Source of the DNA: an uncultured Candidatus Saccharibacteria bacterium
Lineage (GTDB): Bacteria > Patescibacteriota > Minisyncoccia > Phycocordibacterales > PALSA-1337
Assembly (NCBI GenBank): GCA_964358005.1
Contig: CAYHNH010000001.1
Location: 78,775 to 142,774, forward strand
Reading direction: 5' to 3'
Length of the DNA stretch: 64,000 nucleotides
Below the pieces are notes generated by a model. It worked only from the letters and a program-made list of their open reading frames with translations, was not told the DNA's origin and ran no database searches. This document shows positions 3,128 through 60,217 of this stretch, in pieces. Position numbers and translations under genes: made by a program. Position 1 is the first letter of the stretch. The number at the start of each line of letters is the position of its first letter.

Positions 3128-3868
3128 ATGTATAACGAACTCATATTCCGCCCTCTGTATAACGGTCTCATCGGCATCATGAACCTTCTTCCATGGATAG
3201 ACGTCGGTATAGCCGTCTTCATCTTTACCGTTATTGTGAAGGTCATCCTGTACCCCCTCTCCAAATCTGCGCTTTTGACTCAGGTTCGCATGAAGGACAT
3301 AGAGCCAGAGGCGGCCAAGATACGCTCCCAATACGCGAAGGACAAACAACTACAAGCTCAAAAAGTCATGGAGCTCTATAAGACCAAAGGGGTGAAGCCT
3401 TTTTCTGGAGTTCTGTTGCTCATCATTCAGTTACCTATCCTTTTCGCTCTCATATCAGTCTTCTACAAGATAATCCCGACCATAGACGCGACTATCCTGT
3501 ATAGCTTCGTTTCAGTTCCCGTTCTCAAGACCATGTTCTTGGGGTTCATCGATCTCACCCAGCCAAGCCTTTACTTGGCTCTGGCGACGGGTGTTATCCA
3601 ATATCTCCAACTCAAATATTCCCTAGCTTCACAGCAAGCTGCGCCACAGTCGAACACTGGAGGTATGGCTAACATAGCCAACTCGATGAATACGCAGATG
3701 AAATATGCTATCCCGGTTCTAGCGGTGGTATCTATATATTGGATCATTCCGGCTACCTTCCCAGGAGCTTCATCGATAATAGCTGTCTACTGGATGACCA
3801 GCTCGCTTATGACCTTCTTGCAAGAGCTTGTGATACGGAAGAAACATTTGAAGACCGCAAAGGCCTAG
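3128..3868 (+). CDS. yidC: Membrane protein insertase, short YidC/Oxa1 form
   Basis: A 246-aa polytopic membrane protein with hydrophobic core helices and a YidC-like amphipathic region (EPEAAKIRSQYAKDKQLQAQKVMELYKTKGVKPFSG). It completes the conserved rpmH-rnpA-yidC synteny. Confidence 0.85.
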   Translation: MYNELIFRPLYNGLIGIMNLLPWIDVGIAVFIFTVIVKVILYPLSKSALLTQVRMKDIEPEAAKIRSQYAKDKQLQAQKVMELYKTKGVKPFSGVLLLIIQLPILFALISVFYKIIPTIDATILYSFVSVPVLKTMFLGFIDLTQPSLYLALATGVIQYLQLKYSLASQQAAPQSNTGGMANIANSMNTQMKYAIPVLAVVSIYWIIPATFPGASSIIAVYWMTSSLMTFLQELVIRKKHLKTAKA

Positions 3869-3890: not shown

Positions 3891-5156
3891 CTATGGTCTG
3901 ACAAGATCGAGCGACCATAGCGATAGGTCGTTTTTGTTCATGAAGAACATGAATTTGTCCTTAGAGTCGAGGGTTGGATTGAATACGTTGAGTACCCTGT
4001 CAGCCTTATCGATGAGAGAGGAGATGAGCTTGGCTTCTCCCGTCGTTGCGTTGACCTGCCAAATCTTGTCAGTCGTCGAAACGCTTCCGAGGTACCAATC
4101 ATCGGGATAGATCCCGCTCGGGAGTTCGCTGGGCACTCCACAGTAGGCTAGTTCCCTGTACAGGTTGCCCCACACGCATTTGTCCGAGAGCGTGCGGAAG
4201 ACTGCATCGGTGGTGGTCGCAGCCGATACCGAATATACGCCGGTAGCGATGGTTCCGTCCTTAGTGGAAGAGTAGAGGACATGTTTGCCTGTCCGGCTGA
4301 CTGCTGCCGTAAGGCCGTAAATAGGGCCAAGGATCTTTGTCCAGGCGCCGCTCTTAGGGTTGACGAAGTAGAGGAATCCCCCATAGTTGGCCGAAGGCTT
4401 GGTAGTGATGGCGATGATGTCATCTGCCGGCCAGGATACGTTTATGTCAGTAAGCGGTGTGGTGAAGATGCGCGTTGGAGCCGAAGCGCTAAATGAAGAT
4501 AGGTACCCCGCACCGGTGCCGTTCTCGTTTACGATGACGATGACACGCGAGGTATCCGGCGAGGCCGCGTAACCTATGACATTTCCGGATATATTCCTTC
4601 CGCGCAGCTCGTAAGGCGAGAATTGCGCTGTAGTCGAGGCCTTTTTGCTGGGCACAATGTCCGTATAGACAGTAGTCGGGTATAGATTACCGTCCTCGAA
4701 CATGGAAGCGATGAATGCTGTCAGATTCCTATTCCACACGCTCCTCACGATCTTAGGTACGACAGTATTAGAGAGCGTAGTAATCGCGGCCGAATCATAA
4801 GTCGCCTGGTAGACGTTCCCTCTCCCCCTGTCCACCCAGAGCACCTTCGTGGTCGTAGCTGTCGTCGAAGCGCCGTATCCACCCACAGGAGAGTCGCTAA
4901 GCAATCGCAGTGCTGGAATGCGTGCCAGTGCGCCGGGCTGTTGTGTAGTAGTCGTGGCAGTGCTTGTGGCCATTCCAGGGCGGGTAGTTCCCGGAGTAGC
5001 GGGCCGTCCCAAGGGCTGGAAGCCGACAGGCGGTTCCTGTCCTTCCGGTCCTAGAGGCACCTGCACCGGGCTCATCAGGAAGTACCAATATGCCCAGCCT
5101 ACGGCGATGAGCAGTATGACTATGAGCAAGGAGATTATGATGTTTCGGATCTTCAT
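3891..5156 (-). CDS. Membrane-anchored protein with a Thr/Pro-rich linker and a beta-propeller-like C-terminal domain (hypothetical)
   Basis: There is one N-terminal TM helix (IIISLLIVILLIAVGWAYWYF), a low-complexity TTRPGMATSTATTTTQQP linker, then about 300 aa rich in predicted beta-strand (TolB/WD-like). Confidence 0.5.
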   Translation of the reverse strand: MKIRNIIISLLIVILLIAVGWAYWYFLMSPVQVPLGPEGQEPPVGFQPLGRPATPGTTRPGMATSTATTTTQQPGALARIPALRLLSDSPVGGYGASTTATTTKVLWVDRGRGNVYQATYDSAAITTLSNTVVPKIVRSVWNRNLTAFIASMFEDGNLYPTTVYTDIVPSKKASTTAQFSPYELRGRNISGNVIGYAASPDTSRVIVIVNENGTGAGYLSSFSASAPTRIFTTPLTDINVSWPADDIIAITTKPSANYGGFLYFVNPKSGAWTKILGPIYGLTAAVSRTGKHVLYSSTKDGTIATGVYSVSAATTTDAVFRTLSDKCVWGNLYRELAYCGVPSELPSGIYPDDWYLGSVSTTDKIWQVNATTGEAKLISSLIDKADRVLNVFNPTLDSKDKFMFFMNKNDLSLWSLDLVRP

Positions 5157-5161
5157 TTGTT

Positions 5162-6448
5162 TTATCGTCTTTCAAGGCCTGCTAGCATCGCATCGATCTG
5201 TATCTGCGTAGTCTGTCTAAATTCAGAGTTTCTAATGGATGCAATGACAGAAGATGTGTAATTTTTTATGTTGTTTACGGCAATGGCTTTGTAGCCAGCG
5301 AACTGCGAATCATTCGACACTGTTAAGATATTGGTAACTACAGCTCTTCCAAAGTTTCCACCAGCTACTGCACCCACGGCGGCTAGAGTTCCCCCGCTTA
5401 CTCCACCCCCGAACGCACCTAAGGTGACTCCGCCTATTATAGTTCCAGCTCTGATCTCCATATCCTGTAGTGCCGCATGGAACGGACCTATGGAGGCATC
5501 CCCTATAGCCTTAACAACTTGGCTTTGCGTGTATGCCATAACAGACGCGTAGCGTGCGTAATCATCGATAGACGTTTTTAATATCGGGTCGTTGCTTAAA
5601 GTGTCCAGTTCCTGATTATATTTTGTCCTGAATGCCAATATCATTCTTTGGCAGGTCTCGAATGTGGCGCCGGCCGAGCATTTTATGATCTCATCATTCA
5701 TCACACCGACGGCGACTTTCACGGCAATAATTATTTTCTCTTTTTTTACCTGGTCTAGTAGGTTCAACCTGTCTAAACATAACGCTTCTATAGCCTCATC
5801 ACCCTTCGGTTCCTCGTCATTACAATCAACCCCGCCTGTGAGGGTCGCGACCCTAGCGTTTATCTCATCCGCTTGCCTCTGCAGACCTGCTGCAGTAGCG
5901 CGCGCCACGGTCACATCGGCAAGGATTTTCCTATTTGCTTCTTTTGTCCTGTCCAGGACACTTGCCGTGCTGGTCTCCAACATGGCGAAGAAGTCTGCTG
6001 TAGTAGCGTACCTCTCATAATTTATCTTAAGCGGAGCGACAAGGGTCTTGGGGATGGCGACCAGTCTGGGGTCTATGGTGCGTAATATGAGGTATGAGCA
6101 GAGGACCAGGAGCAGGCCGTAGACTGCGTTCTTGACCTTGTCCAGACCGGTTTTCTTGTCCTGCCAGGAGTCGGTGGTCATATACTGTAGGCCGCCGAAT
6201 ACGATCATGAATACGGCCCCTGCCGCCGCGATAGCTATGATCAGGTTGAAAATATACTGTATATAGTCCTGGAAATTGAATGAGGACCGCCCTTTTGCCA
6301 ACTCATCGGCTGTGCAGGTCACACCGTTTCCGGGGATGCACGGCAACGGCTCTAGAGCGACGTATTGCTGGCTCTGCGCCCAACCGATCGATGGTAGGAT
6401 CATGATGGTCAGCATCAGTACTAGTGAGATTTTTGTTTTTATTGCCAT
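5162..6448 (-). CDS. VirB2/TrbC-like pilin domain fused to a roughly 300-aa coiled-coil and Gly-rich extension
   Basis: Signal peptide MAIKTKISLVLMLTIMILPSIGWAQ, then two closely spaced TM helices (IFNLIIAIAAAGAVFMIVFGG and AVYGLLLVLCSYLIL) joined by a short loop, the T4SS pilin architecture. The C-terminus is Gly-rich (GGVTLGAFGGGVSGGTLAAVGAVAGGNFG). Confidence 0.45.
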   Translation of the reverse strand: MAIKTKISLVLMLTIMILPSIGWAQSQQYVALEPLPCIPGNGVTCTADELAKGRSSFNFQDYIQYIFNLIIAIAAAGAVFMIVFGGLQYMTTDSWQDKKTGLDKVKNAVYGLLLVLCSYLILRTIDPRLVAIPKTLVAPLKINYERYATTADFFAMLETSTASVLDRTKEANRKILADVTVARATAAGLQRQADEINARVATLTGGVDCNDEEPKGDEAIEALCLDRLNLLDQVKKEKIIIAVKVAVGVMNDEIIKCSAGATFETCQRMILAFRTKYNQELDTLSNDPILKTSIDDYARYASVMAYTQSQVVKAIGDASIGPFHAALQDMEIRAGTIIGGVTLGAFGGGVSGGTLAAVGAVAGGNFGRAVVTNILTVSNDSQFAGYKAIAVNNIKNYTSSVIASIRNSEFRQTTQIQIDAMLAGLERR

Positions 6449-6454
6449 GATGAT

Positions 6455-7543
6455 TTAAAAGGTGATAGGCGAGCTGGAAGCTGCGGCAGTGAATACGGCG
6501 CGGAATGCACCATTAGCACTCTGTAGTATCGATGTTTTGTTCGTGATGCGCAGCTCTATCGCGGTAGAGCCGACGGATCCTTCTGGTGCTCTCAGGGTCA
6601 CGGTTTGGTTCGATACGAGCTCCGGCCGCGACCTCCCGTTTATCATCCAGGCCATGTTGAGGTCCCCCAGACCGGTGGCAGGGGCATTGAAGCCGTACGG
6701 GATGGCCAATACACCCGTCTCTCTCTGTGTGTTGAGATACAAGGCATTGTTTATGGCCGTGTCGTACAAGGGGCCGTACAGTGGGTCATTCTTATAGAAT
6801 TTTACGAAGGGAGCAACAGGGTTCACTGAAACAGAACCGGCGCCTTGGGCGCTGCCGTCCCGGGTACTTACGCTGACTGATATGACATATGGTCTGGGTA
6901 TCATGCCGCCAGGTATGATCAGAGATTGTTTTCCATACCCAGAAGATCCTTCGATGATGTCCCCATTCTGCTCCCATCTATAGAGGAGAGATTTAGGGTC
7001 GTATTCGGTGCCAGCTGAATTGGCCAGATGAGGAATAGCAGCTACTTTGACGTCGTTTTGGTATGCGGTCGCGATCTTGCCCTGGAATGTCGGGGGCTTA
7101 TGTCCGGCCGGCTCGACGATCATATCAACTGAGCCGGAAGTCAGGGTGAGCGAGCTCTGCAGTGATTCGCCGGAGGGAGTCACCGCGGAGATGTTGATTG
7201 AGAGCGATTTGCCCAAAGCTGGAGCCTTGACGGTTATGATATTGGATCCTATGCCCTTTTCCACGACCTTACTCGCGACCGACCAAGTAAGGTTGGCTGA
7301 ATATATATCTATGCTGTAACTCCTTGCTGTAATGGTGACGCTCTGACCTGGCGCCGGATTCGAGATAGATGGAGTCAGCTCTATCCCCCCGACAACCGGG
7401 GTGATGCCCTGGGCGCTCACAGAAATAGTCGCGCTGAGTAACAGACCTGATATGACCAATATAATCCTAGTCCAGCTAGTGCGGCGTTGCATTCCTGCCA
7501 TTTTATCATGGAAGTCGGCCGCTGGTTCAGGAGTTATCACCAA
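6455..7543 (-). CDS. Secreted protein with Ig-like/beta-rich repeats (hypothetical)
   Basis: N-terminal signal/anchor (WTRIILVISGLLLSATISVSAQG), then a Ser/Thr/Gly-rich beta-rich sequence. It sits inside the T4SS-like locus. Confidence 0.5.
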   Translation of the reverse strand: MVITPEPAADFHDKMAGMQRRTSWTRIILVISGLLLSATISVSAQGITPVVGGIELTPSISNPAPGQSVTITARSYSIDIYSANLTWSVASKVVEKGIGSNIITVKAPALGKSLSINISAVTPSGESLQSSLTLTSGSVDMIVEPAGHKPPTFQGKIATAYQNDVKVAAIPHLANSAGTEYDPKSLLYRWEQNGDIIEGSSGYGKQSLIIPGGMIPRPYVISVSVSTRDGSAQGAGSVSVNPVAPFVKFYKNDPLYGPLYDTAINNALYLNTQRETGVLAIPYGFNAPATGLGDLNMAWMINGRSRPELVSNQTVTLRAPEGSVGSTAIELRITNKTSILQSANGAFRAVFTAAASSSPITF

Positions 7544-8045
7544 AATGTTGGGTAGGCTGCCTTACCCCACCCACATTCAGAGGTTGCCTGCCAGCAGCGT
7601 GGTTTACACTTTCAGTGTCAGCCCGTCTTATTCCTCCTTGATTGAGCGGTGCATTGCCGGGCACAGACGCTTTTATTCCAGTCTTATCCTCTAGTCTGGA
7701 GAGGACTATGACTACGGCAATTCCTACGATGAGGAGTGGGAACTCTTGAATGACCGGAATCAGCTCCGTGGCCATCGATATAAGAGAAGTGGCGAGGCGC
7801 CGCGCATTCAAGATGCCGTGCCCTTTGAAGTACAGGTATATGCTGACGAGTACCCAGAATACGGGAGCTACGATATCGCCGGCGATAGGGATCAAAGTCA
7901 CGATGTCGGCAACTGTCGCAAAGAACAACAGTCCTACTACTGCTGTATTTTTCAGCCTATAGTTGGTGCCCTTGTCGGTCACCGCCTTAAGGACGGCTCT
8001 TACAGTTTCTTTTTTCTCACTATCGGTCTGTCCTGTCTGAGCCAT
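7527..8045 (-). CDS. Small polytopic membrane protein (hypothetical)
   Basis: 172 aa with 3-4 predicted TM helices (VVGLLFFATVADIVTLIPIAGDIVAPVFWVLVSIYLYF; LLIVGIAVVIVL). It is adjacent to VirB4. Confidence 0.4.
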   Translation of the reverse strand: MAQTGQTDSEKKETVRAVLKAVTDKGTNYRLKNTAVVGLLFFATVADIVTLIPIAGDIVAPVFWVLVSIYLYFKGHGILNARRLATSLISMATELIPVIQEFPLLIVGIAVVIVLSRLEDKTGIKASVPGNAPLNQGGIRRADTESVNHAAGRQPLNVGGVRQPTQHFGDNS

Positions 8046-8069
8046 AATAAACCATTATAGCATCGGCGC

Positions 8070-9887
8070 TTATGCCCCCGCCTGTTCTAGGTCGCGCTTG
8101 GCTTTCTCTATCTCCATGACCTGGGCCGGGTTAGTCGTGATGATCTGGTCCTCCGTGTACGAGGCGCGTATCTGGATAGCCACATGTTTCAGTCCTACGA
8201 AGAATATACCCTCGCCCACATCCGACTCGAGCAGGAGGTACTTCTCTTCGTCTGTCAGATTGAACGTCTGTTGGATATGATCGATGATGGTCGGAGACTG
8301 CTTGAGCAGGATCTGGATCGAGGAGTTGGTGAGGATCGGCAGGCCATAAGGCGATTTTAGGAAGTCGTCCACGTCTTGAGTGATAGTGGCCAAGCCCAGG
8401 AAGTATTTGCGGCCGCGCTTGGCCAAACTGTACAGGAATGAAGCCGTATCTTCGGATTTCATCATCCACCAGGCCTCGTCGATGACCAAGAGCCTCTTCT
8501 TGCGGATCTTTCGGATGGCATTCCATATATAGTGCGTGACTATGTACATGGCAACAGGCTTGAGCTCGTCTTCCATGTCGCGTAGGGAGAAGACGATGAA
8601 TTTGTTGTTAATGTCCACATTCGATGGGCGGTTTATGAAGCCCGACCATGTGCCCTTCGTATACTTGGTCAGTCTCTGGACTAGCGAGTCAGCGCCTTCC
8701 ATGCCAGCCAGCACCAGTTCGAAGTCGGACAATAGCGGGGGCTCGATATTGTGGAAATTTGATTCCGGGGAGATGTCTTTGAGGGCGTATGTCTCGGTGA
8801 TGGCTCGGTCGATGATAGCGTCCTCTTCTTGCGACAAACCACCTAGCATGATGCGGAAGAGTCCCACCAAGTTGATGATATTGGAGCGCAATACATCCGA
8901 GCTAGACTCGTCCTCCCCCACTATAGGCAGGTCGAAAGGATTTATGTGGTGCTCGGAGTTAAGCGAGATATTGAAATATTTTCCGCCGGTGGCTTCTGAC
9001 ATGTACTCGTACTCCTTTTCAGGGTCAATGACTATGACATCGCCATCGAACATGAGTGTGCGCAGGATTTCCAGCTTGGTGCAGTAGGACTTACCGGCGC
9101 CGGCCACCGCGAAGGTCACGGAGTTGTAGTTTGCCAGCGAATAACGGTCAAATAGCACCAGCGAGGAGTTGTGGCGGTTTATCCCATAGAGGATGCCCTT
9201 GTCTGATGTGAGGTCGAATGACACGAACGGAAAGACGCTCGAGAGCGGCGAGGAGTTGAGCTTGGAATGCACCATGAGCTGATCATCACAGATCGGAATG
9301 ACGCTCTTGAACCCAGGTTCCTGCTGGAACAGCGCCGGCTTGAGGTACACGAGCTTTGATTCGAGGATGGATTTTATCTCGGACTCGAGCTTATCGAGCT
9401 CGCTCTCATTGTCGGCAAAGATGGTGAGGTATACTCCGACGTCGAAGAGGTGTTCCTGGGCCTGCATGAGCTGATCGCGCAAGGTTTCTAGGTCCTGATA
9501 TGCGGTGTCTAGGGCCGGGTCGCGGACCAGTCCCTTCTCTTCTCTTCTCGATATCTGGCTCTGTACCTCGGCGACCTTTTTCTGGAAATGGCGCAGGATC
9601 CTGGCCGTATCTACGGGATGTATGAATATGGAGGCATTGAATACCTTGTCGAGATTGATGATGGGGGCGAACCAGCTCTCATCCAGGAAGCGCGGGTAGG
9701 ATATGACGAAGAGGGTCCTGCCGACTTTTTCACCCAGGTTAAGCTCCTTGGGGCTTATCTTCAGTGCCGATGGGGCGATGACGTCCTTGAGCTCCAGGAC
9801 TCCTGCCTGATATATCTCCTCCGGAAGTATGGAGATGATGGGCGATTGCTCGTCTTTTTTGCCGAATAGTTTGGATATGAAGCTCAT
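8070..9887 (-). CDS. virB4: Type IV secretion/conjugation ATPase VirB4/TrbE family, C-terminal 605-aa portion including the ATPase domain
   Basis: Walker A AVAGAGKS and Walker B RLLVIDEAWWM are present, plus a VirB4-like linker/membrane-proximal region (VIAPSALKISPKELNLGEKVGRTLFVISYPRFLDESWF). Confidence 0.85.
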   Translation of the reverse strand: MSFISKLFGKKDEQSPIISILPEEIYQAGVLELKDVIAPSALKISPKELNLGEKVGRTLFVISYPRFLDESWFAPIINLDKVFNASIFIHPVDTARILRHFQKKVAEVQSQISRREEKGLVRDPALDTAYQDLETLRDQLMQAQEHLFDVGVYLTIFADNESELDKLESEIKSILESKLVYLKPALFQQEPGFKSVIPICDDQLMVHSKLNSSPLSSVFPFVSFDLTSDKGILYGINRHNSSLVLFDRYSLANYNSVTFAVAGAGKSYCTKLEILRTLMFDGDVIVIDPEKEYEYMSEATGGKYFNISLNSEHHINPFDLPIVGEDESSSDVLRSNIINLVGLFRIMLGGLSQEEDAIIDRAITETYALKDISPESNFHNIEPPLLSDFELVLAGMEGADSLVQRLTKYTKGTWSGFINRPSNVDINNKFIVFSLRDMEDELKPVAMYIVTHYIWNAIRKIRKKRLLVIDEAWWMMKSEDTASFLYSLAKRGRKYFLGLATITQDVDDFLKSPYGLPILTNSSIQILLKQSPTIIDHIQQTFNLTDEEKYLLLESDVGEGIFFVGLKHVAIQIRASYTEDQIITTNPAQVMEIEKAKRDLEQAGA

Positions 9888-10525
9888 GTTAGTTGTATCG
9901 GCTTCTCTGTTTCGCCTGGGTTAAAGATCTTGTAGAACAATTCTACCACTTCCTCGGTGCCAAGCTCGGCCGTGCGGATGCCACAGCGCACCAGACCCTG
10001 CTCTACTACGGCCACTCTTTGCTCTAGCTGGCTCTTGTATTCCTGGAATTTCTCCTCGGCGGAGGCGGTCTCCTTTTGGGTGGCTTCCCTCTGGGGCATC
10101 ATCCTGGATATGGGGTTTTTGCCGGCGCCCATGATCGGCGGGTCGTAGGGCACGACCACAAAAAAGCCCTTGGACATGATGTTGGTTGTTTCGACGAACG
10201 TTTTTATGAATTCTATGTACTCTCGGACCTGTATCTTCATGAGCTCAGTAGGCTGTTCCTTGTATCTGTCCTCGAGGAGAGCTATGTACGGCCTGATATC
10301 TAGCTTTTTCGACTGTATGTATATCTGTATCGAGAAATCGAGCGAGTTCAGGAAGTTCTGGAACTGCAAAAGTATGGCGCTCTGTTCGTCTGAGGACTTC
10401 AGGGCGAAGTTTAGCGAAGTCGCGAGGACGAGCGCGCGCATGCCGCCGCTCTTCAAGATGACGACCCCATCGCGTATCTCCTGGATGGGAACGAAGTTCT
10501 GGGTTGTCTGGGTTTGTGAAGCCAT
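9884..10525 (-). CDS. VirB4 N-terminal domain encoded as a separate 213-aa ORF
   Basis: FVPIQEIRDGVVILKSGGMRALVLATSLNFALKSSDEQSAILLQFQNFLNSLDFSIQIYIQSKK matches the N-terminal domain pattern of Gram-positive-type VirB4 (PrgJ/TcpF/Orf16-like). Its stop overlaps the downstream start as ATGA at 9884..9887. Confidence 0.6.
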   Translation of the reverse strand: MASQTQTTQNFVPIQEIRDGVVILKSGGMRALVLATSLNFALKSSDEQSAILLQFQNFLNSLDFSIQIYIQSKKLDIRPYIALLEDRYKEQPTELMKIQVREYIEFIKTFVETTNIMSKGFFVVVPYDPPIMGAGKNPISRMMPQREATQKETASAEEKFQEYKSQLEQRVAVVEQGLVRCGIRTAELGTEEVVELFYKIFNPGETEKPIQLT

Positions 10526-10959
10526 CAGCGTTGGTCTTTGTTAGAGTATATGCTCTCCTTTATATCTAGGCTCCATGAGAGGTCCTTCAGTTTGCTGTCC
10601 GAGATCTTGGGGACCATTATCGAGGCGTAATTCTTGGCCTGCTTCACTGCCTCCGCGGTCGTCGGTGGCTGGGGTTTGGGCTCTTTCTTCCATATATATA
10701 GTTTGGCTCCGAGCCAGAACCTTATTGCCGCTTCTAGCACTCCGATGAGCGGCTTGTTGTTCACCTTGTAGAAGGCTAAGGAGAGCGATAGCGCCATGAC
10801 TATCACTATAGGCAGTAATGACAGGATTATGCTGTTCAGCATGAAGTAGATCACGAATGAGAGCCCTGCTCCTCCAGCGACGTAGATGAATTGCTTCAAC
10901 GTCAGTGGGCCAAAGATCTTGTCCTCTACTTCTATGAATTGAGGTACCTGAAATCGCAT
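10525..10959 (-). CDS. PrgI/VirB3-like small membrane protein
   Basis: 144 aa. The N-terminus MRFQVPQFIEVEDKIFGPLTLKQFIYVAGGAGLSFVIYF has the PrgI-family pattern (F.EKI.G.LT.RQ), followed by two TM helices. It sits immediately upstream of VirB4. Confidence 0.5.
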   Translation of the reverse strand: MRFQVPQFIEVEDKIFGPLTLKQFIYVAGGAGLSFVIYFMLNSIILSLLPIVIVMALSLSLAFYKVNNKPLIGVLEAAIRFWLGAKLYIWKKEPKPQPPTTAEAVKQAKNYASIMVPKISDSKLKDLSWSLDIKESIYSNKDQR

Positions 10960-11008
10960 CTAGGATATTATAGCGACAAGCGAGGACCAAAGCGAGCGCT
11001 TGCGCTCA

Positions 11009-11626
11009 CTAGACCAATGGTTCCCTGTAGGGGTCGCCGCTCGTCGAAGCTCCTGGTACTGCCGGGCTCGGCTTCTGTGTCACTTTTTCGGTAGGAACGG
11101 CGGTCGAACTGCGTAGGAGCTGTTCGACGAGGGATTCCCTTTTCTGTTCTGGTGCCGTGGTTGGTGCCTGCGGTGCGCTTCTAGGGGCCGTCGGTTGCGG
11201 GTTTTCGAGGCCTTCCAGCACGTCTTTGCGGTTTATCGGTACGATTGAGCCGTCATCAGCCTGGGGATTCCCAACGGCTGGCGTTTTCTCTATCGTGAAG
11301 TCGCCGGCCTGTTCGAGTGCCTTGTTGCCTTCGGTACTTGTAAGCTCGGTACCCTGTAGTTCCTCACGGAATACCTTTATGAGTTCTTCGTTCACGCTTT
11401 GGGTTATGCCATCTGCTGTTTCTGAATCAATTTTAAGTAAGTCGGTTATGTTCTGGGTGAAGTCTGCTGGTTGGCTCAAGCCCAAAAGGATCTTCTTTAT
11501 CTCTACGTCTAGCTCTCCCAATTGATCAAGGTTAAGACCGAACTTTTCACCAACGGATTCGACTGCCGTGTATATCCGGGGGTCCCGAGACAAGTTTTTT
11601 ATGCCGCCTATTGTTTGTGGGTTCAT
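11009..11626 (-). CDS. Acidic hypothetical protein within the T4SS-like locus
   Basis: A 205-aa ORF on the same strand, between the VirB6-like and PrgI-like genes. No recognisable motif. Confidence 0.4.
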   Translation of the reverse strand: MNPQTIGGIKNLSRDPRIYTAVESVGEKFGLNLDQLGELDVEIKKILLGLSQPADFTQNITDLLKIDSETADGITQSVNEELIKVFREELQGTELTSTEGNKALEQAGDFTIEKTPAVGNPQADDGSIVPINRKDVLEGLENPQPTAPRSAPQAPTTAPEQKRESLVEQLLRSSTAVPTEKVTQKPSPAVPGASTSGDPYREPLV

Positions 11627-11633
11627 ATTTTTA

Positions 11634-13571
11634 TCATAACCAATCGCTATTTGAAGGCTTGTTCACAAAGCCTTCTGCTTTGTGTGGGAGTCTCGGTCCT
11701 GCCGGACCAACTCGCCAGCCACTAATCTTGTTGCCGATGGCCTTCTTCAGAACAGTGTCGATGCCTTCATCCCCCATCGCCTTTAGCTGTCCTGCCGTAA
11801 GGTGCTCTATCACTTTTTCATCCTCAAGGAGAGATGGTCCAGGTACCCTGGAGGTGACATCCAGGAGGTCCTTTCCGTTCATTTCGCCCGTCATGTGCTT
11901 TATTTGCTCGGTCTCTTCCCTCGTTACGGAATCCTCAAGGGCCTTGCCTCTGAGATCCAATATCTTGTTCTTATCTTCATCAGAAATGTCCTCAGATTTT
12001 GCGATCGAGGCAAAATCTTCTCGGCTGGCGTGCTTGAGTATCTGCATGACTGCGTCATCGTCCTTTTCTTTTAGTTTTGCCGTTATCGCGCCAGTCTTTT
12101 CCTTGGTGCTCATGACGCTGACTACCGTCTTCAGGTCGGCGTGAGTGCCAGTACGAGCCATGACAGCATTGAGTTTGCTATTGAAGTTGTTCTTCCTATC
12201 GATGATCTTGCCCTCCTTGCTAACCTCCTTCTGCTCCTTCTGGCGTTCCTCATGCGATCTCATGCCACCCATCTTGCTCTTGGCCAGAGCGCCGGTGGTA
12301 GCTCCTCGTATGTCGCGTGCCAGGAGAGTGTTCCCGAGTTTTGTACCCGCCATTGCCTTGTCTAGCCTTGCTGCCCCAGCTCCGATTGTCTTGGTACCAG
12401 CATAGCCACCAATAGTGCTCCAGACCTTGCCGGCACCGAACTTATCTGCAGCCTTATTTAGTATCGATATAGTCTTGCCCGCTATGCTGGCCGCCGCAAC
12501 CAAGGGAAGGTTGAGCAGGAAAATGACGATGGTGGCATTGACTGCTAGGAGCATGTATTCTCTGTACCAAGGAGCCGCGCTCACGGCTGCCGTCGTGCTT
12601 TGCGGGTCGAACATCGGCGTGGTCGTGAGGACATTCAAGGCCAGATACATGAGTAGCAGGTACACGGGCATGAACAGCAGCATGCTCTTGTAGAGATCCC
12701 ACCACTTGCCAGCGTAGGTTTTCACCTCTGGGGCCAAGAAAGAGATGAAATATACTGGCGAGAATGCCAAGAGGAACAGCAGGATGACGAATCGGGCGAT
12801 GAAGGCAAATGCCGCGGCGGCAAAGCTTATCGTAGCCACGAATTCTATGATGATGCCTATTATACCGACCATGATTATTTTGAAAGTATCGTTGAACAGT
12901 CCAGTGGTACCGTTGCTCGATCCTAGCCCGGATGCCGCGTTGCTGGCCGAGAAGTCATAGAGCTTGGTTATCTTCAGTGAGTTCATGAATATATCGGAAA
13001 GGCCGCCGTCTCGTATGAGAACGCCGTTTTCGAGGCCAATCTGCTCGTTGCCGAGAGCCATCCCACCGGTTGCCGTATTCGCTGGAGCGATAGCGTTGTA
13101 GAGCTGCATGGAAACTATGTTCGACGCGTCTATGCCGAGACCCGTGAGGAAGAAGCTGAAGTTGATCAGGATGCCGGCCATGACGATGTTCTTTATGAGC
13201 TCCTTGAACTTCGGATCCTGCAGTCCGAGGATGAGCTGGACGGAGGCGTAGAGCAGGAAGAAGATTATGAATATGCCGCTTATGTCCCGGATCGCCTTCC
13301 AGGTCGTATATATGGCTGGCGCATTGTCTACGAAAGCTTTTATATTGAGCGTGAGCCTGATCGAAACGTTGAGGAGGAAGCCGGCGATGGCCAATATCCA
13401 GCTCATTATCTTTAGTCCTGTGTTGAAGAACATGGCGACGAGCTCATTGAAGGTGCCGTATGCGATATTGAAGAGGCTCCACTGCGCATGTGCCTGGTGG
13501 GTGGTCGCCACGAAGACAACAAATGCCAGGAGTAGGACGGCGCCGATTTTTATGAGGTGTTTCTTCTTCAT
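11634..13571 (-). CDS. VirB6/TrbL-like polytopic membrane protein with a long hydrophilic C-terminal tail
   Basis: Likely start MKKKHLIKIGAVLLLAFVVFV (signal/anchor), then at least 6 TM helices and a charged C-terminal region of about 250 aa. Architecture and position match VirB6-family channel proteins. Confidence 0.55.
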   Translation of the reverse strand: MKKKHLIKIGAVLLLAFVVFVATTHQAHAQWSLFNIAYGTFNELVAMFFNTGLKIMSWILAIAGFLLNVSIRLTLNIKAFVDNAPAIYTTWKAIRDISGIFIIFFLLYASVQLILGLQDPKFKELIKNIVMAGILINFSFFLTGLGIDASNIVSMQLYNAIAPANTATGGMALGNEQIGLENGVLIRDGGLSDIFMNSLKITKLYDFSASNAASGLGSSNGTTGLFNDTFKIIMVGIIGIIIEFVATISFAAAAFAFIARFVILLFLLAFSPVYFISFLAPEVKTYAGKWWDLYKSMLLFMPVYLLLMYLALNVLTTTPMFDPQSTTAAVSAAPWYREYMLLAVNATIVIFLLNLPLVAAASIAGKTISILNKAADKFGAGKVWSTIGGYAGTKTIGAGAARLDKAMAGTKLGNTLLARDIRGATTGALAKSKMGGMRSHEERQKEQKEVSKEGKIIDRKNNFNSKLNAVMARTGTHADLKTVVSVMSTKEKTGAITAKLKEKDDDAVMQILKHASREDFASIAKSEDISDEDKNKILDLRGKALEDSVTREETEQIKHMTGEMNGKDLLDVTSRVPGPSLLEDEKVIEHLTAGQLKAMGDEGIDTVLKKAIGNKISGWRVGPAGPRLPHKAEGFVNKPSNSDWL

Positions 13572-13575
13572 GTTT

Positions 13576-15096
13576 TTACAGGCGGTCACATGCTGTCTGG
13601 AATGCGGCGGCATCGGCGGTGAATGTTACTACGCGACCTCTGACATAGTTCAGGTCTGACTGGGAGGAGGTAACCAATGCCGCGACGTTCGATCCAGATA
13701 GGAATTGGCTGAGGCCATTGACCTGAGTGTTTATGTTTTGAGCTACCTGATCGATCGGATTATTTCCAATTACAGACGGTGGTGTGGATAGACGAATGAC
13801 TATGTAATCTCGCCTACTGGTCAATTCGTTAATAAAACTGCCCACCTCGTATTGTTGTGTCGCTATCAGGCTGAGGTTTGTCTGGGCGTCTTGTATCTTC
13901 TGTTGGGTCTGGCTGATGCCTAGTTTTCCTGTAAAGCACGCCTGTGCTTGGCTGTATTTGGTGTAGGCTTCGTTTACCAGGACGATGGCGTCATCGTAGT
14001 TTCTCTTAGCCATGCTTAAAGCACCCGCATCTGGATTGGAGCCATCGCCTGTCCCTCCTGTTGGGGTTAACGTGTTCGCATATACCTGTTGTAGGTACAA
14101 TCTCCCGCTTCCAGGTCCAGATGATCCGGAGCTCATAGCGTAAAGTCCTCTTTGCAGAGTCTTGGTTACAAGTTGCGATACGAGCGCGCTCACCACAGCG
14201 TTTATGTTGTCAGCGAGCTCGAGCTGTCTTGCCGGAGACTGGAGAGAGCTGTTCAATGATGCTTCTATGACAGAGCCAGGTGTTTTGTATTGGCACTTCT
14301 GCAGGTGGCCGTCCGGTCCGTCCTTGTAGGCTACACCGCCCGAGGAAGTCCCCCTGTAATTTCCGGCCTCTTCATCGGATATCCCGGCGTCTTCACATGA
14401 TTCCCATGAGAGAAAGCCTTTTCCCTGTATAAGGTCGCTCTGCACAAAGGCTTTCTTTTGTGAGACAGCGAACATCTGGTCGCTCCTTGCCATAAGGATG
14501 GTTCCTATCGGATTGTTCTGGTCCTCTGTTGTTAACGCAATGAAGGCTGGCCAGCCACCCTGCTTGAAATCTCCTTTTATGAAGCCGTCTATGCTCGCGC
14601 CGTTGACGTAACTGCCCTGATAGTTGTCTATGACGGTGCTTAGAGTGCAGGTATATTTTCGACGATTTGGCATACCGTCACCGGGGGTTTCAAGCTGTTG
14701 GATAGCTAGGGCGACCTTTATGTCTACGCTCCAAGGCGAGCACAGCCTTTTGAGCGGGCCGCTGTCTGAGATGAATTGACCGGTGAGCTGGTCAGCCGCG
14801 TCTAGGAAAAATCCTTCAGGATTAGTGAGGAATGAAGGCTTGCCCTTGAAGCCAGTGTTGATCCAATTAACCACGGACACTGTCATCTGATTCAGGACCT
14901 GCTTGGCTGCCATGTAGGCTAGTCTATCGCCGAGGAAATCCTTCCAGTTTCTCGCCTGATTAAAAAAGGCGTTGGCGATACCTGTCGGGCTAGTATCGCC
15001 GACCTGGAGGGTGGCGAGCTGCGCGTTTGCGATCTGCGAATTGGTTGTAAAAATAATACAGGAAATAATCAAAAACACCGTTGCGAGGTATTTCAT
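13576..15096 (-). CDS. Secreted hypothetical protein (likely start MKYLATVFLIISCIIFTTNSQIANAQ)
   Basis: Signal peptide, then a soluble Gly/Ser/Thr-rich domain with several Cys. Same strand, between the VirB6-like gene and rsmA. Confidence 0.5.
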   Translation of the reverse strand: MKYLATVFLIISCIIFTTNSQIANAQLATLQVGDTSPTGIANAFFNQARNWKDFLGDRLAYMAAKQVLNQMTVSVVNWINTGFKGKPSFLTNPEGFFLDAADQLTGQFISDSGPLKRLCSPWSVDIKVALAIQQLETPGDGMPNRRKYTCTLSTVIDNYQGSYVNGASIDGFIKGDFKQGGWPAFIALTTEDQNNPIGTILMARSDQMFAVSQKKAFVQSDLIQGKGFLSWESCEDAGISDEEAGNYRGTSSGGVAYKDGPDGHLQKCQYKTPGSVIEASLNSSLQSPARQLELADNINAVVSALVSQLVTKTLQRGLYAMSSGSSGPGSGRLYLQQVYANTLTPTGGTGDGSNPDAGALSMAKRNYDDAIVLVNEAYTKYSQAQACFTGKLGISQTQQKIQDAQTNLSLIATQQYEVGSFINELTSRRDYIVIRLSTPPSVIGNNPIDQVAQNINTQVNGLSQFLSGSNVAALVTSSQSDLNYVRGRVVTFTADAAAFQTACDRL

Positions 15097-15136
15097 GGGT
15101 GCACGGGGTTTTCTGTTTTGTATATTTACCATGTGT

Positions 15137-15976
15137 TTACGAGCCTATTCGGACTCCTGCCATCAGTAGATAGTCGTTAACCTCATAAAGAAGGCTGGCT
15201 ATATTCTGCATCGCTGCCACCCCGAGGCTGATTCCAGCTAATCCGCTTACAGGGTCTGTGTCTATGCGCCTTATCGCTTCAGCGTTGTGAATCGCCAGAC
15301 TTACGTTGTTCATCAGCTCCAGATGATATTTGGCAAGAGGGATCGGGGTATTTATAGTCTTGAGCGAAGCCAGGAGACTCTTGTAGTCTTCGATGATGGG
15401 GTCGATCTTTTTTAAGATGAGCATGTCGTTGGTCGTAAGCGCCTCCGTAGCTATCTGTGCCTCATTCTCTTTCGGCATGTGAGAACCAAATGTATTTGTT
15501 AAGACTTTGCCATAGTCATTCAATGCTACTGTGGTGCTCGCCGATAGTTTGATGTCTGAGATCGAAAATGTTTTAGGTAAAGGCAGTTTTGCTAGCGCTT
15601 CGGCCGTGACTTGACCCATGATGCTTGCAACGGAATCGGCGTCCGCGATAAGCCCTGATTGTTGTAACTCTTCATATTTGGTGAGGAATGATCGTCCGAG
15701 AAGGTCGGTGGCTGTAAGTTTTTCCGGTTCATTCGGCGTGGCCTTTGCCGGGCTCTTAAAAGTCGTGCTAGTAGAGTTTTTGTCTATGAATTGTTGCCGC
15801 CAGTTCGTATTTTCTGGAAGAGCTTCCGGCGTCGCCAGTGATATGCCGACGAGCTCGCTGCCTATCGGTGCTTTTATTCCTGATGAATCACCGCGGACGT
15901 AGAAAGCCACGCCTCCCACAGCGAGGATGCATACGACAAGAATCACGACGGTTTGCTTGCGTGGGTATACGGCCAT
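15137..15976 (-). CDS. Membrane-anchored hypothetical protein
   Basis: Single N-terminal TM helix (VVILVVCILAVGGVAFYV) and an extracytoplasmic alpha-rich domain. It is the first gene of the T4SS-like block. Confidence 0.5.
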   Translation of the reverse strand: MAVYPRKQTVVILVVCILAVGGVAFYVRGDSSGIKAPIGSELVGISLATPEALPENTNWRQQFIDKNSTSTTFKSPAKATPNEPEKLTATDLLGRSFLTKYEELQQSGLIADADSVASIMGQVTAEALAKLPLPKTFSISDIKLSASTTVALNDYGKVLTNTFGSHMPKENEAQIATEALTTNDMLILKKIDPIIEDYKSLLASLKTINTPIPLAKYHLELMNNVSLAIHNAEAIRRIDTDPVSGLAGISLGVAAMQNIASLLYEVNDYLLMAGVRIGS

Positions 15977-16023: not shown

Positions 16024-16812
16024 TTATTCACACAACAAGTCGAACCACTGCTTGAGAGTGAGATCTTCAGCCCGGACCTTCGGGTTGAGGTAAATTTTTG
16101 CAAATTTTTGATCGATTTTGTCCAAGTCCATCTCTTTCAGGTTGCTTATCAGGAGTTTTCTCTTATGCGCAAACCCGGCCTTTACGATATCGAAGAATCT
16201 CCTTATTTCTAGGCCTTTTTCGGTAAACAAGCGGTCAGATATGTCCTCGATGGACAGTATCGCCGAGTCCACGTTTGGCGGCGGATTGAATGCTCCCCTT
16301 GGGACCTTCGCGGCTATACGGGGCGTCCCGAAGGCCTTGACCGAGATCGAGAGGATGCTTTCCTTGCCGTTTCTCGCAACGATCCTATCAGCCACTTCCT
16401 TCTGGACTAATAGCACCATCCTGTTCGGTCGTGGACCGTATTCTAGGAATGATTCCAGAATAGCTCCTGTTATGTAGTAAGGAATATTCGCGACCACTGC
16501 GTATCCTCCCTCTTCGAAGCCCATCTTTGCTCGGTCCGTCTCCAGGATATCCGCAGAGTGGACCGTCAGGTTGCCCGAGGCGATCTCGGAAGCGAATTTT
16601 TCCCTGAGCAGGACGTTTGCGCGGTCATCTTTTTCCACAGCTATCACTTTTACTCCGCTTTTTAGCAGTGCACCGGTTAGCACACCTGTACCCGGACCGA
16701 TCTCGAGCACAACCTCCCCATTTTTCAGGTTGGCCGTCTCGATGATCTTCGCCAGCGCTGAAGGCGAATTGAGAAAATGTTGTCCCAGAGATTTTTTTGG
16801 TTGAAGATGCAT
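16024..16812 (-). CDS. rsmA: 16S rRNA (adenine1518-N6/adenine1519-N6)-dimethyltransferase
   Basis: LGQHFLNSPSALAKII, VLEIGPGTGVLT (SAM motif) and ANIPYYIT (NIPY substrate motif). Confidence 0.9.
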   Translation of the reverse strand: MHLQPKKSLGQHFLNSPSALAKIIETANLKNGEVVLEIGPGTGVLTGALLKSGVKVIAVEKDDRANVLLREKFASEIASGNLTVHSADILETDRAKMGFEEGGYAVVANIPYYITGAILESFLEYGPRPNRMVLLVQKEVADRIVARNGKESILSISVKAFGTPRIAAKVPRGAFNPPPNVDSAILSIEDISDRLFTEKGLEIRRFFDIVKAGFAHKRKLLISNLKEMDLDKIDQKFAKIYLNPKVRAEDLTLKQWFDLLCE

Positions 16813-16819
16813 GTGCGTG

Positions 16820-17566
16820 TTAAAAATCTATGAAAATAGCCTTGGCTCCAGTCGGTTTGGGAGGGATGCTGTCCTCGATGAGGTTCTTTTCGATGTCCTC
16901 GATGAACTCTGAAGGGGTATTGACCCTCTCGGTGCCGTAGATTTTCCTGACGAGCGAGTAGCTCAAGTGGATTTTTTTCCGAGCACGGGTCAGAGCTACA
17001 TAGAACAGTCTCCGTTCCTCCTCTGCCTCGTGCTGGCTCATGTCCCCGTCATCGGAATGCTTGAATGGGAAAAGGTCTTGTTCCAGTCCGGCTATGAACA
17101 CGTGGTCGAACTCGAGGCCTTTGGCCGCGTGCACGGTCATCAGTTTGACTGAGTCGGTATTCTCGTTGAGCTCGTCCTGATCGGTGGCGAGCGCCGCGTT
17201 CGTCAGGAATGCCTCGATGCCTTCCTCTGGCTTCAGGTGGTCGTACTGCGATGCTACGGAGACGAGCTCACGGACGTTAAGCAGGCGATCCTCATCCTCC
17301 ATATCTCCAGAAAGCAAAATCTTCTCAATGCCGCTTTCCTGGATGATGAAACGGATGACATCCGATGCCTTCTTTTCCTTTATCTCCTCGCGTATGTCAG
17401 AGAGGAGCTTCCTGAAATCGGCTATCTTGTCGCGCATGCCCGGAGGGAGAGAGTCCTCTTCCCCGCCGACGATCTTCGCTAGCGTCACCTTGCCGATGCC
17501 TCGAGGTGGCACGTTTATTATACGGCTAATGTCAGCCACGCTTTCTGGATTTAAGGATGCCTTCAC
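16820..17566 (-). CDS. uvrD: UvrD/PcrA-family helicase, C-terminal fragment (2B/2A domains); starts at a GTG three nt after an in-frame TAA
   Basis: ISRIINVPPRGIGKVTLAKI, VKLMTVHAAKGLEFDHVFIAGLEQDLFP and RRLFYVALTRARKKIHLSY are the conserved helicase motifs V/VI region. Confidence 0.7.
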   Translation of the reverse strand: MKASLNPESVADISRIINVPPRGIGKVTLAKIVGGEEDSLPPGMRDKIADFRKLLSDIREEIKEKKASDVIRFIIQESGIEKILLSGDMEDEDRLLNVRELVSVASQYDHLKPEEGIEAFLTNAALATDQDELNENTDSVKLMTVHAAKGLEFDHVFIAGLEQDLFPFKHSDDGDMSQHEAEEERRLFYVALTRARKKIHLSYSLVRKIYGTERVNTPSEFIEDIEKNLIEDSIPPKPTGAKAIFIDF

Positions 17567-17569
17567 GTA

Positions 17570-18751
17570 TTATAGGACGTCCTTCACCTCCTTCCTTTCG
17601 AAGAATTTCACCCCCAGCAATTGGTATGGGATGTTCTTCTTGATGAAGGCTTCTTCGAGCACGCGGGATTGGAAGTTTGTCCGGTATAGGACGGCGATCT
17701 CCCTAGGAGACAGGCCGGTCTCGATGAGATCCCGGGCGGAGTCAGCTATGGCTCGGGCTTCCTCGGTTTCAGAGTAGGAAGCCGAGAGGGATATCTTCTC
17801 ACCGGCAACATTGTCGGTATACAGGGTCTTCTTCTTGCGCATGGAGTTCTTCTCGATCACGGCATTGGCTGCCGCAAGAATAGTTTTCGTCGAGCGATAG
17901 TTCTTTTCGAGAGTGATCACGGTGGTGTTGGGATAGTCCTTTTCGAAATGGAGGATATTCTCTATCGTCGCCCCGCGCCAGCTGTAGATATTCTGGTCCG
18001 CGTCCCCGACGGCGCAGATATTGTTATGCGCTGCGGCTAGATGGTTGGCGATCTTGTATTGGACCTTGTTTGTGTCCTGGTATTCGTCTATGTGTATGTA
18101 CTTCCAGACCTTGGCGTAGCGTTCCCTGATATCCGCCCTCTCCAACAAGTGGGCCGTCTTTGCCAAGAGGTCATCGAAGTCTAGAGCTTTTTCCTTGAAT
18201 AGGATGGCGTCATATCTTTCCCACACCTCTGCTGTCATCTCCTGCATAAAATCCCTGGCCGCGTCCTTGTACTGGAGCGGATTATGCCCATCGCCCTTGG
18301 CTCGGGAGATGAGATTGAGGAATAGTCCCGGGTCGTATTTTTTCGGGTCGATGTTGCGCGAGAGCATGGCTTCTTTGACTGCCCGCTTCGAGTCGCCGCG
18401 ATCATATATCGTAAAATACCTGGTGAGGCCGAGCAGGTGGGCGTTTTCTTTTATTATGTGCACGCCGAGGGCGTGGAAAGTGCTTACGAACGGCTTTTCA
18501 TTGATGGAGATTGGGCGGTTTATTCCGTTGTCCACCGAAAGCAGGCTTGTCACCCTGTCGCGCATTTCCTTGGCCGCCTTGTTGGTGAAAGTTATTGCCA
18601 ATATCTCATGCGGAGCTACCCCGGACCGGACCAGATTGAGGATTCTATGGGCTATGACCCTAGTTTTGCCCGAACCAGCACCAGCGACTATGAGCAAGGG
18701 GCCGTTTTTGGTCTCGACGGCTCTTTTCTGGGCTTCGTTGAGAGTGTTCAC
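17570..18751 (-). CDS. uvrD: UvrD/PcrA-family helicase, N-terminal fragment (1A/1B domains), ending at an in-frame TAA
   Basis: LLIVAGAGSGKTRVIAHR (Walker A), ILAITFTNKAAKEM, HIDEYQDTN (motif II) and the KFFERKEVKDVL end. It is in frame with the downstream fragment. Confidence 0.7.
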   Translation of the reverse strand: MNTLNEAQKRAVETKNGPLLIVAGAGSGKTRVIAHRILNLVRSGVAPHEILAITFTNKAAKEMRDRVTSLLSVDNGINRPISINEKPFVSTFHALGVHIIKENAHLLGLTRYFTIYDRGDSKRAVKEAMLSRNIDPKKYDPGLFLNLISRAKGDGHNPLQYKDAARDFMQEMTAEVWERYDAILFKEKALDFDDLLAKTAHLLERADIRERYAKVWKYIHIDEYQDTNKVQYKIANHLAAAHNNICAVGDADQNIYSWRGATIENILHFEKDYPNTTVITLEKNYRSTKTILAAANAVIEKNSMRKKKTLYTDNVAGEKISLSASYSETEEARAIADSARDLIETGLSPREIAVLYRTNFQSRVLEEAFIKKNIPYQLLGVKFFERKEVKDVL

Positions 18752-18945
18752 CGGGACATACTACCATAAAGACCATGTTCATATCGCGTTTGACTTCGGG
18801 TCAAAAAATGATATCCTTGGGCCACATATCCAATCTTTATGTTTTTGACATTCACGGCTCTATATAGCCATGAATACATAGGGACAGGATCACAGGACGG
18901 CTGATATTACCTTTACGGATGCTTGACAGGAGGGGCACATCCATT

Positions 18946-33376: not shown

Positions 33377-33449
33377 GGGCTCATTCTAGCAGGATTGTCG
33401 CTTTTTGACGACAGATAGACAACTTTGTTGACTGCGCTAGGCTGTCTGC

Positions 33450-34550: not shown

Positions 34551-34567
34551 TCAGAAAGCACCCATTA

Positions 34568-35338: not shown

Positions 35339-35442
35339 ACTATGTAAATAGTGTAATATTCCTTTAAATATAAGTCAATACGTTTGATAGCTGTTAAAAT
35401 TACTTGACAATACATTTATGATTCTGTATACTTACCCTCATT

Positions 35443-37704: not shown

Positions 37705-37821
37705 CCAGCAATTCTGCTACACAGTCAAGGATATGTCATATTTGTCGACAAACTTGTCACAATTGACTATTAACGCCATATAAATTAAGCTTTAGTTGTT
37801 GACGAAATACTCGACAAATTA

Positions 37822-54412: not shown

Positions 54413-54485
54413 AGGGCAAGCCTGAAGGTTCTATCCGCGCACTGTGCCTACGGTGCGCTTTTTTGCATGGTATAATTGTGGTGAC

Positions 54486-56237: not shown

Positions 56238-56238
56238 T

Positions 56239-59216: not shown

Positions 59217-59220
59217 TTAT

Positions 59221-60211: not shown

Positions 60212-60217
60212 GCTCCG

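Follow-up and report, generated by a model that had tools for sequence, protein, structure and literature searches.

The 64-kb stretch of DNA analysed here (hereafter the window) carries, between positions 3891 and 15976 on its minus strand, a compact block of genes for a type IV secretion system (T4SS). The block is the chromosomal, relaxase-less T4SS of ultra-small Patescibacteria, a system that has been described previously, and it does not represent a new kind; it is real and strongly conserved, and its host is a groundwater Paceibacteria genome with dnaA nearby. It is in our judgement quite likely that the block is a vertically inherited Patescibacteria-type machine, derived from the conjugation machinery of monoderm bacteria (MPF_FATA), which acts at host contact and not in DNA conjugation. 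Patescibacteria account for a considerable part of bacterial diversity and seem to live at the expense of other cells, and to our knowledge theirs is the only T4SS that has been shown to be indispensable to its own bacterium. The block comprises eleven tightly packed open reading frames (ORFs), all of them intact, which overlap or are separated by gaps of no more than 49 nt (TM, transmembrane; coordinates are those of the window):

3891-5156, minus strand: membrane-anchored protein of 421 aa with a probable beta-propeller, last gene of the block
5162-6448, minus strand: VirB2-like T4SS pilin with a hypervariable extension (PF18895)
6455-7543, minus strand: secreted or anchored protein with probable Ig-like beta-sandwich domains
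7527-8045, minus strand: small membrane protein with two to three TM helices
8070-9887, minus strand: VirB4 ATPase of 605 aa, without the usual N-terminal domain (NF045971)
9884-10525, minus strand: TrsD-like protein, a separately encoded homologue of the VirB4 N-terminal domain (NF045975, NF041427, PF26593)
10525-10959, minus strand: PrgI/VirB3-like protein with two TM helices (PF12666)
11009-11626, minus strand: acidic soluble protein of 205 aa (from its composition)
11634-13571, minus strand: extended VirB6-like polytopic membrane protein with a tail (TrbL matches in orthologues and an AlphaFold2 model)
13576-15096, minus strand: secreted Cys-containing protein of 506 aa, directly upstream of the VirB6 gene
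15137-15976, minus strand: bitopic, membrane-anchored extracytoplasmic protein of 279 aa, first gene of the block

A first-pass annotation of the same DNA had already picked out these eleven minus-strand ORFs, all of which were recovered with the same ends or to within a few codons, and its descriptions of signal peptides, TM helices and acidic character match the hydropathy and composition of the proteins. It had placed the end of the block at the pilin gene; the ORFs are as it listed them, and the block has to be extended to include 3891-5156, which also belongs to the module, being syntenic after the pilin gene in 59 loci of related genomes (median identity 31%).

VirB4 is the motor of the system. 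The ORF at 8070-9887 passes the CD1110 family NF045971 (conju_CD1110) with 366 bits against a cutoff of 325, matches PF19044 (1.6e-26), and retains intact Walker A (AVAGAGKS) and Walker B (LLVIDEAW) motifs. The closest solved structure is 4AG5, the C-terminal domain of a Thermoanaerobacter VirB4 (3.4e-38), the diderm protein TrwK being far more distant (1.4e-4); judged by its sequence, this VirB4 is of the monoderm CD1110/MPF_FATA type. The ORF covers only positions 185-733 of the 752 in NF045971, whilst the TrsD-like protein encoded at 9884-10525 aligns to positions 1-105 of the same profile, which correspond to the N-terminal part of VirB4. The latter protein also matches NF045975 (positions 99-233, E 1.7e-11) and the TrsD family NF041427 (1.6e-5), and it carries a precomputed match to the TraC-like family PF26593. 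The two genes overlap by 4 nt (ATGA) and are read in different frames. Relatives were collected in a scan of one genome per GTDB species, which returned at least 555 VirB4 homologues, and the best 80 of these (76-95% identity) were used to retrieve loci; a TrsD-like ORF of around 211 aa precedes virB4 in 80 of the 80. That VirB4 is ‘split’, as the first-pass annotation put it, is thus correct insofar as its N-terminal domain forms a protein of its own, as the restricted profile coverage indicates. The gene is not broken: the presence of the TrsD-like ORF in every relative identifies the TrsD-plus-VirB4 arrangement as a conserved state. In L083 (9095-11009), a low-coverage assembly made independently from the same population, approximately 97 extra bases near the 5′ part of virB4, relative to the copy in the window, cause the gene to be called in two pieces of 48 aa and 465 aa. 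At 3x coverage this break is probably an artefact of assembly; the copy in the window is intact.

Two further membrane components accompany the ATPase. The protein encoded at 10525-10959 matches PF12666 (44.5 bits against a cutoff of 27), has TM helices at residues 23-67 and was found in 78 of the 80 loci; the profile search that had been suggested as a check on its PrgI/VirB3-like assignment thus came out positive, and the protein is the expected membrane anchor for VirB4. The VirB6-like protein (11634-13571) has a signal peptide, approximately seven TM helices and a Lys/Glu-rich tail of about 250 aa. It has no Pfam or NCBIfam match of its own; TrbL/VirB6 (PF04610) is matched by six of its 46 orthologues (best 6e-5). 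An AlphaFold2 model of the membrane part, built with 69 homologues, was reasonably confident (predicted local distance difference test (pLDDT) 78.8, predicted template modelling score (pTM) 0.71), and its best natural structural matches were TrwI/VirB6 and DotA, so that the earlier VirB6-like call is supported by orthologue matches and by fold. With this tail the protein corresponds to the ‘extended VirB6’ type of a 2025 T4SS review (PMC12857230). A profile hidden Markov model of the protein searched against PDB sequences returned low-complexity matches to the charged tail only. Comparisons by hhalign with single pCF10 sequences, which are weak templates, were not significant and are neutral (VirB6-like protein with PrgH, E 0.09; pilin with PrgF, E 0.04).

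The pilin gene (5162-6448) encodes a signal peptide followed by a PF18895 T4SS_pilin domain at residues 61-123 (38 bits against a cutoff of 26.6), with TM helices at 62-91 and 107-126; PF18895 is likewise matched by 44 of 45 orthologues, and the proposal that this is a VirB2-like fusion pilin holds on both counts. A further match was to NF045849, a family of Mycoplasma integrative and conjugative element (ICE) pilin-like proteins (E 2.5e-4). Conserved columns across the 45 orthologues are confined to the domain at approximately residues 29-130, the C-terminal tail of about 300 aa having no consensus. A Gly-rich hydrophobic hairpin in this tail, reminiscent of pore formers (hints of DUF6861 and SipB), was considered and dismissed, as it is not conserved among the orthologues.

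This set of components can be compared with the T4SS of the Patescibacteria clade, known from a survey of the group (Quinonero-Coronel et al. 2025; PMC12102498) and from genes SEML1_0006-0019 of the Saccharibacterium Southlakia epibionticum (Wang et al. 2023; PMC10633639). The survey reports VirB4 in 2,417 of 3,035 Patescibacteria genomes, forming a monophyletic clade nested in MPF_FATA, with TrsD, PrgI/VirB3, VirB6 and VirB2-like pilins encoded near virB4, and names dnaA, dnaN, ksgA and rnpA as common neighbours of virB4 in Paceibacteria (PMC12102498). In S. epibionticum, transposon sequencing (Tn-seq) showed the T4SS genes, including the pilins, to be essential for epibiotic growth; the system, an unusual T4SS, resembles Gram-positive conjugative systems, and neither a relaxase nor a coupling protein can be recognised in its cluster (PMC10633639). 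The block in the window likewise has an MPF_FATA-type VirB4, a separate TrsD, PrgI/VirB3, VirB6 and a PF18895 pilin beside virB4, has no relaxase or type IV coupling protein (T4CP) in the cluster, and lies on the chromosome near dnaA, ksgA and rnpA, as in the Paceibacteria of the survey. As far as gene content, VirB4 type and position can tell, it matches each defining feature of the Patescibacteria-clade T4SS. It differs in having a single pilin gene, whose C-terminal extension is long and hypervariable, where Saccharimonadia and Microgenomatia have arrays of 2-11 short pilins, and in having no peptidase or lysozyme gene directly downstream of virB4, where S. epibionticum has one. The accessory proteins at 13576-15096, 15137-15976, 6455-7543 and 3891-5156 are not met in the available parts of either paper (PMC12102498; PMC10633639). 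The 2025 review treats the Patescibacteria T4SSs as a new branch of the superfamily, and offers the speculation that T4SS and pilus together make a conduit through which signals could pass or uptake from the host could proceed (PMC12857230).

Resemblance to the monoderm MPF_FATA systems (PrgF-PrgL/PcfC of pCF10, CTn2, pGO1 and the Mycoplasma ICE) lies in the CD1110-type VirB4, the PrgI protein, a TrsD-like protein, which pGO1 also encodes, a pilin-like protein resembling the Mbov_0395 family of the Mycoplasma ICE, and a single-membrane architecture that lacks VirB7, VirB9 and VirB10. In contrast to those systems, the block has no relaxase, no PcfC/VirD4, no PrgK-type hydrolase within the operon and no detectable PrgL/VirB8, is not mobile, and possesses a bona fide VirB2-type pilin domain. 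With the minimized diderm T4SSs, R388 Trw and Agrobacterium tumefaciens VirB, it shares the TrwI fold of the VirB6-like protein, equivalents of VirB2, VirB3 and VirB4, and a secreted protein encoded directly upstream of the VirB6 gene, just as virB5 precedes virB6 in those systems; it departs from them in having no outer-membrane core (VirB7, VirB9 and VirB10), no VirB11, VirD4 or VirB8, an upstream secreted protein with no match to the VirB5 fold, and a VirB4 distant from TrwK.

The families of VirB4, PrgI, TrsD and the pilin all stem from monoderm conjugative elements, and a tyrosine recombinase gene lies in the window, both of which would suit a transfer module of an integrated conjugative or mobilizable element whose relaxase, coupling protein and integrase are elsewhere or were recently lost. 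The genomic setting makes this highly improbable. The genes around the block are as follows:

1154-2494: dnaA
2778-3116: rnpA
3128-3868: yidC
16024-16812: ksgA
16820-18751, minus strand: pcrA/uvrD helicase
18919-20037, plus strand: LysM and M23 peptidase (PF01551, 2.5e-29; PF01476, 8e-21)
20012-21568, minus strand: ComM/Mg-chelatase-like competence helicase
26728-27651, plus strand: XerC/D-like tyrosine recombinase

Thus yidC-rnpA-dnaA flank the block on one side and ksgA, pcrA/uvrD and the M23/LysM peptidase gene on the other; beyond dnaA are dnaN, a gene for a penicillin-binding protein, ruvC and ruvB. The best 80 VirB4 relatives are all from metagenome-assembled genomes of Patescibacteria, labelled Paceibacterota, Parcubacteria, Taylorbacteria, Zambryskibacteria or Campbellbacteria. 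Gene order could be judged, with flanks of 10 kb, in around 40 loci that were long enough, from different species, and synteny in relatives, another check that had been called for, was plain: the order runs pcrA, ksgA, anchored protein, secreted protein, VirB6-like protein, acidic protein, PrgI, TrsD, VirB4, (small membrane protein), Ig-like protein, pilin, propeller protein, yidC and dnaA, the yidC-rnpA-dnaA side being kept in these loci likewise. Median identities across the loci are 80% for VirB4, 63% for TrsD, 58% for PrgI, 58% for DnaA, 49% for KsgA and 28-38% for the envelope and acidic proteins, and the values of the three core T4SS proteins beside those of DnaA and KsgA point to strong purifying selection. 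It was also seen that VirB4 is more conserved between species than DnaA or KsgA in the same loci, an unusually strong constraint for a secretion ATPase. At 0.50-0.52, the guanine plus cytosine (GC) content of the block is close to that of its surroundings. A fixed gene order in about 40 species, a VirB4 conserved above DnaA and a GC content like that of the flanks together argue for a vertically inherited operon and against an ICE: mobility would not be expected to leave the block at a fixed position between dnaA and ksgA across species, with divergence that tracks DnaA and KsgA and with unremarkable composition. Between the block and the recombinase, 10 kb away, lie ksgA, pcrA, comM and the gene for PNPase, and relaxases were reported in just 103 of 3,035 Patescibacteria genomes (PMC12102498).

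Searches for the missing conjugation parts covered the 64-kb window and the 10 kb beyond its left end, past dnaA. Pfam scans of 49 ORFs in the window found no relaxase, VirD4/TcpA, VirB8, VirB9, VirB10 or VirB11, and a Walker A scan of all window ORFs of at least 150 aa returned DnaA, VirB4, UvrD, ComM and PilB only, with no second T4SS ATPase; nor was a relaxase, coupling protein, VirB8-11 or further T4SS ATPase found in the 10 kb to the left. The absence of relaxase, VirD4 and VirB8-11 from the window, as first noted, is borne out, and the relaxase or VirD4 just outside it that would have pointed to a conventional ICE was not found in the left flank. The accompanying statement that VirB1 is lacking is less secure. 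No classical VirB1 was found; the M23/LysM peptidase at 18919-20037 is a possible analogue, which leaves ‘no VirB1’ uncertain. This peptidase gene sits beside pcrA in all 10 loci whose flank extends that far, and VirB1-type matches with M23/LysM domains are associated with virB4 in Paceibacteria (PMC12102498). It may therefore be a VirB1 analogue for cell-wall remodelling, its membership of the module being uncertain. On lineage, VirB4 type, vertical inheritance and agreement with the published component set, the initial suggestion of a minimal Gram-positive-like, non-conjugative T4SS of an ultra-small bacterium is supported.

A block that has no classical VirB1, VirB8 or T4CP, that has a VirB4 without its N-terminal domain, and whose neighbour pcrA carries an in-frame stop might also be read as the decaying, functionless remnant of an ancient conjugation system. 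Of all the readings weighed here this is the least credible, and we give it next to no weight. Its eleven ORFs are intact, the catalytic motifs of VirB4 are kept in a protein conserved above DnaA across 80 genomes, and the TrsD-like gene is missing from none of those loci; the frequent frameshifts or losses of the block that decay would leave in relatives were not seen, and 12 kb of dead DNA is seldom kept in reduced genomes.

For the preferred reading, a T4SS acting at host contact, a sequence of steps can be proposed in which docking, pilin extraction and assembly, and the roles of the envelope proteins are drawn from the R388 structure and from monoderm T4SS architecture. In the single membrane, VirB6 would serve as the platform to which PrgI and the TrsD-like protein dock hexamers of VirB4; VirB4 would pull pilin out of the membrane and assemble it into a short pilus or conduit that crosses the wall. 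The secreted or anchored proteins at 13576-15096, 15137-15976, 6455-7543 and 3891-5156 may be wall-spanning or host-contact parts, and the assembled machine would move proteins or other macromolecules at the site of contact with the host cell, either exporting effectors or importing host material, without conjugating DNA.

The main rival to this scheme is a machine for DNA import, a T4SS run in reverse like Helicobacter pylori ComB or the archaeal Ced system, which would take up host or environmental DNA for nucleotides or genes. T4SSs without relaxase and T4CP do include DNA-uptake systems, uptake of DNA or other macromolecules from hosts has been proposed for Patescibacteria (PMC12102498), ComM and PcrA are encoded nearby, and VirB4 gives a faint match to CedB (NF041017, 8.1e-8). 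That match, however, scores 31 bits against a cutoff of 700 and reflects generic P-loop similarity, and the component set of Ced/ComB-type systems is not found in the block, which has no equivalents of VirB7, VirB8, VirB9 or VirB10. The block has no DNA-binding or translocase component either. Furthermore, in S. epibionticum type IV pili and ComEC mediate competence, and cells deleted for comEC are no less viable, in contrast to the essential T4SS (PMC12857230); PilB and PilC of a type IV pilus are encoded in the window itself, at 54444-57459. DNA import is for these reasons an unlikely function of the block.

Several points nonetheless weigh against a host-contact T4SS. Essentiality is extrapolated to the Paceibacteria system from one Saccharibacterium, and since no substrate, effector or recruitment ATPase was identified the transport step is inferred. 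Parts of the VirB8 and VirB1 types were not found, the comparison with PrgL giving E 0.21 and the M23 peptidase being a candidate only. VirD4-like genes lie far from virB4 in most Patescibacteria genomes (PMC12102498), so that a T4CP or relaxase could sit elsewhere in this one. A 300-aa tail is unusual for a VirB2 pilin that polymerizes, so that the pilus is putative. Lastly, the VirB6 call is one of fold similarity, with weak Foldseek E-values (0.07-0.26), and of TrbL matches in a minority of orthologues.

The six unannotated envelope and acidic proteins are co-inherited with the T4SS core, at identities of 28-38% across loci, and the conserved synteny of the secreted ones suggests that they are components of the machine or of the cell surface and not cargo. 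The secreted protein at 13576-15096 has a signal peptide, a conserved N-terminal domain with residues W78, G85, P87, C119, C150, C234 and C268 invariant in 69 homologues, and a C-terminal bundle of long helices that was modelled confidently. The AlphaFold2 model as a whole reached a pLDDT of 67, was poor for the N-terminal domain and matched generic helical bundles only; no PDB or Pfam match was found, and no fold could be assigned. Its family is very large, with 5,625 clusters at 50% identity at E<=1e-3 and 2,651 at E<=1e-30, and a surface location is indicated by added Ig-like, discoidin or PKD domains in some orthologues. Identity as VirB5 or as the TraI of CTnDOT was considered and is unsupported. 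DUF4141 is the TraI of Bacteroides conjugative transposons, which has been termed VirB5-like (PMC4027160); in some homologues of the present protein a DUF4141 match occurs, which covers residues 15-59, in the signal-peptide region, and scores 24-30 bits against a cutoff of 30, and no VirB5 fold was among the top 50 Foldseek matches of the pLDDT 67 model.

The anchored protein at 15137-15976 has a TM helix at residues 5-31, and 10 of its 35 orthologues carry bacterial TSP3 calcium-binding repeats. Considered as a possible VirB8, it had no PDB or Pfam match, and hhalign of its profile with the VirB8-like PrgL of pCF10 gave E 0.21. In the protein at 6455-7543 a hydrophobic segment at residues 24-47 ends in AQG; translation probably begins at an internal Met near 7492-7501, a start that would give a canonical signal peptide. 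Found in 76 of the 80 loci, this protein is probably an Ig-like beta-sandwich protein, as its profile best matches Ig folds in the PDB (Hoc, E 0.014; antigen receptor, 0.052) and its orthologues match Ig_3 (nine), BiPBP_C (eight) and PKD_3 (four). The protein at 3891-5156 has a TM segment at residues 1-31 followed by a Pro/Thr-rich linker, and is probably a beta-propeller, judging from weak TolB propeller matches (TIGR02800, E 0.017; PDB TolB, E 0.56) and from PD40 or DPPIV_N matches in four orthologues. The Ig-like and propeller assignments of the first-pass annotation thus find matches that recur and are individually weak. The small membrane protein (7527-8045) has TM segments at 31-73 and 93-120; its sequence is detectable in 18 loci, although in most loci the place after virB4 is taken by a small ORF with several TM helices. 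The acidic protein (11009-11626; 32 D+E against 20 K+R, no TM helix) had no family match among Pfam and NCBIfam profiles and is weakly conserved, being found in 31 loci at 28% identity.

The window therefore offers a clean Paceibacteria example, with intact genes, of a known and mechanistically unsolved system. Unannotated envelope proteins, among them one (13576-15096) from a very large family, make up about half of the conserved module, and they are obvious targets for establishing what the machine contacts and moves; the residual interest of the locus lies in this unannotated half and in the single pilin with its hypervariable tail. One conceivable if rather doubtful extension is that the six unannotated co-inherited proteins and the hypervariable pilin tail form a Patescibacteria-specific extracellular apparatus, which would replace VirB5, VirB8 and the wall-spanning parts and set host specificity, the machine being a conduit that imports host macromolecules into the epibiont.

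Some observations concern the neighbouring genes. Scans for promoters, terminators and DnaA boxes gave hits at chance level only. The pcrA/uvrD gene (16820-18751, minus strand) is split by an in-frame TAA at 17570-17572, a position at which a Ser codon is found in around 30 relatives (a change of TCA>TAA would fit). L083, which comes from a replicate sample and is 99.9% identical, has this TAA as well, and the stop is thus probably real and not an assembly error. Stop-codon reassignment as a cause of the split genes was rejected: the VirB4 and TrsD genes overlap at ATGA and use different frames, and pcrA has a single TAA in place of Ser. ComM (20012-21568) and the tyrosine recombinase (26728-27651) lie within 11 kb of the T4SS block and, within the reach of the 10-kb flanks, neither belongs to its conserved part, the recombinase being separated from it by housekeeping genes. 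Between these two, 22030-23544 (minus strand) encodes a protein of 504 aa whose N-terminal half is very rich in Pro and whose C-terminal part is globular, with one TM helix; Pfam gave no match, and no tblastn match was found in the related loci, whose flanks mostly stop short of that position.

Further along the window, three paralogous Peripla_BP_6 solute-binding proteins (33450-34550, 35443-36561 and 36562-37704) are interleaved with three TrmB-like regulators (32612-33376, 34568-35338 and 37822-38565), and the region as a whole (32612-38565) has a GC content of 0.465-0.50, below that of its surroundings. A type IV pilus locus, separate from the T4SS, occupies 54444-60688: it encodes the PilB ATPase (54444-56237; T2SSE, 3e-118), PilC (56239-57459), a 586-aa protein with a pilin-like N-terminus and no Pfam match (57456-59216), and three small ORFs (59221-60688) that may be minor pilins.

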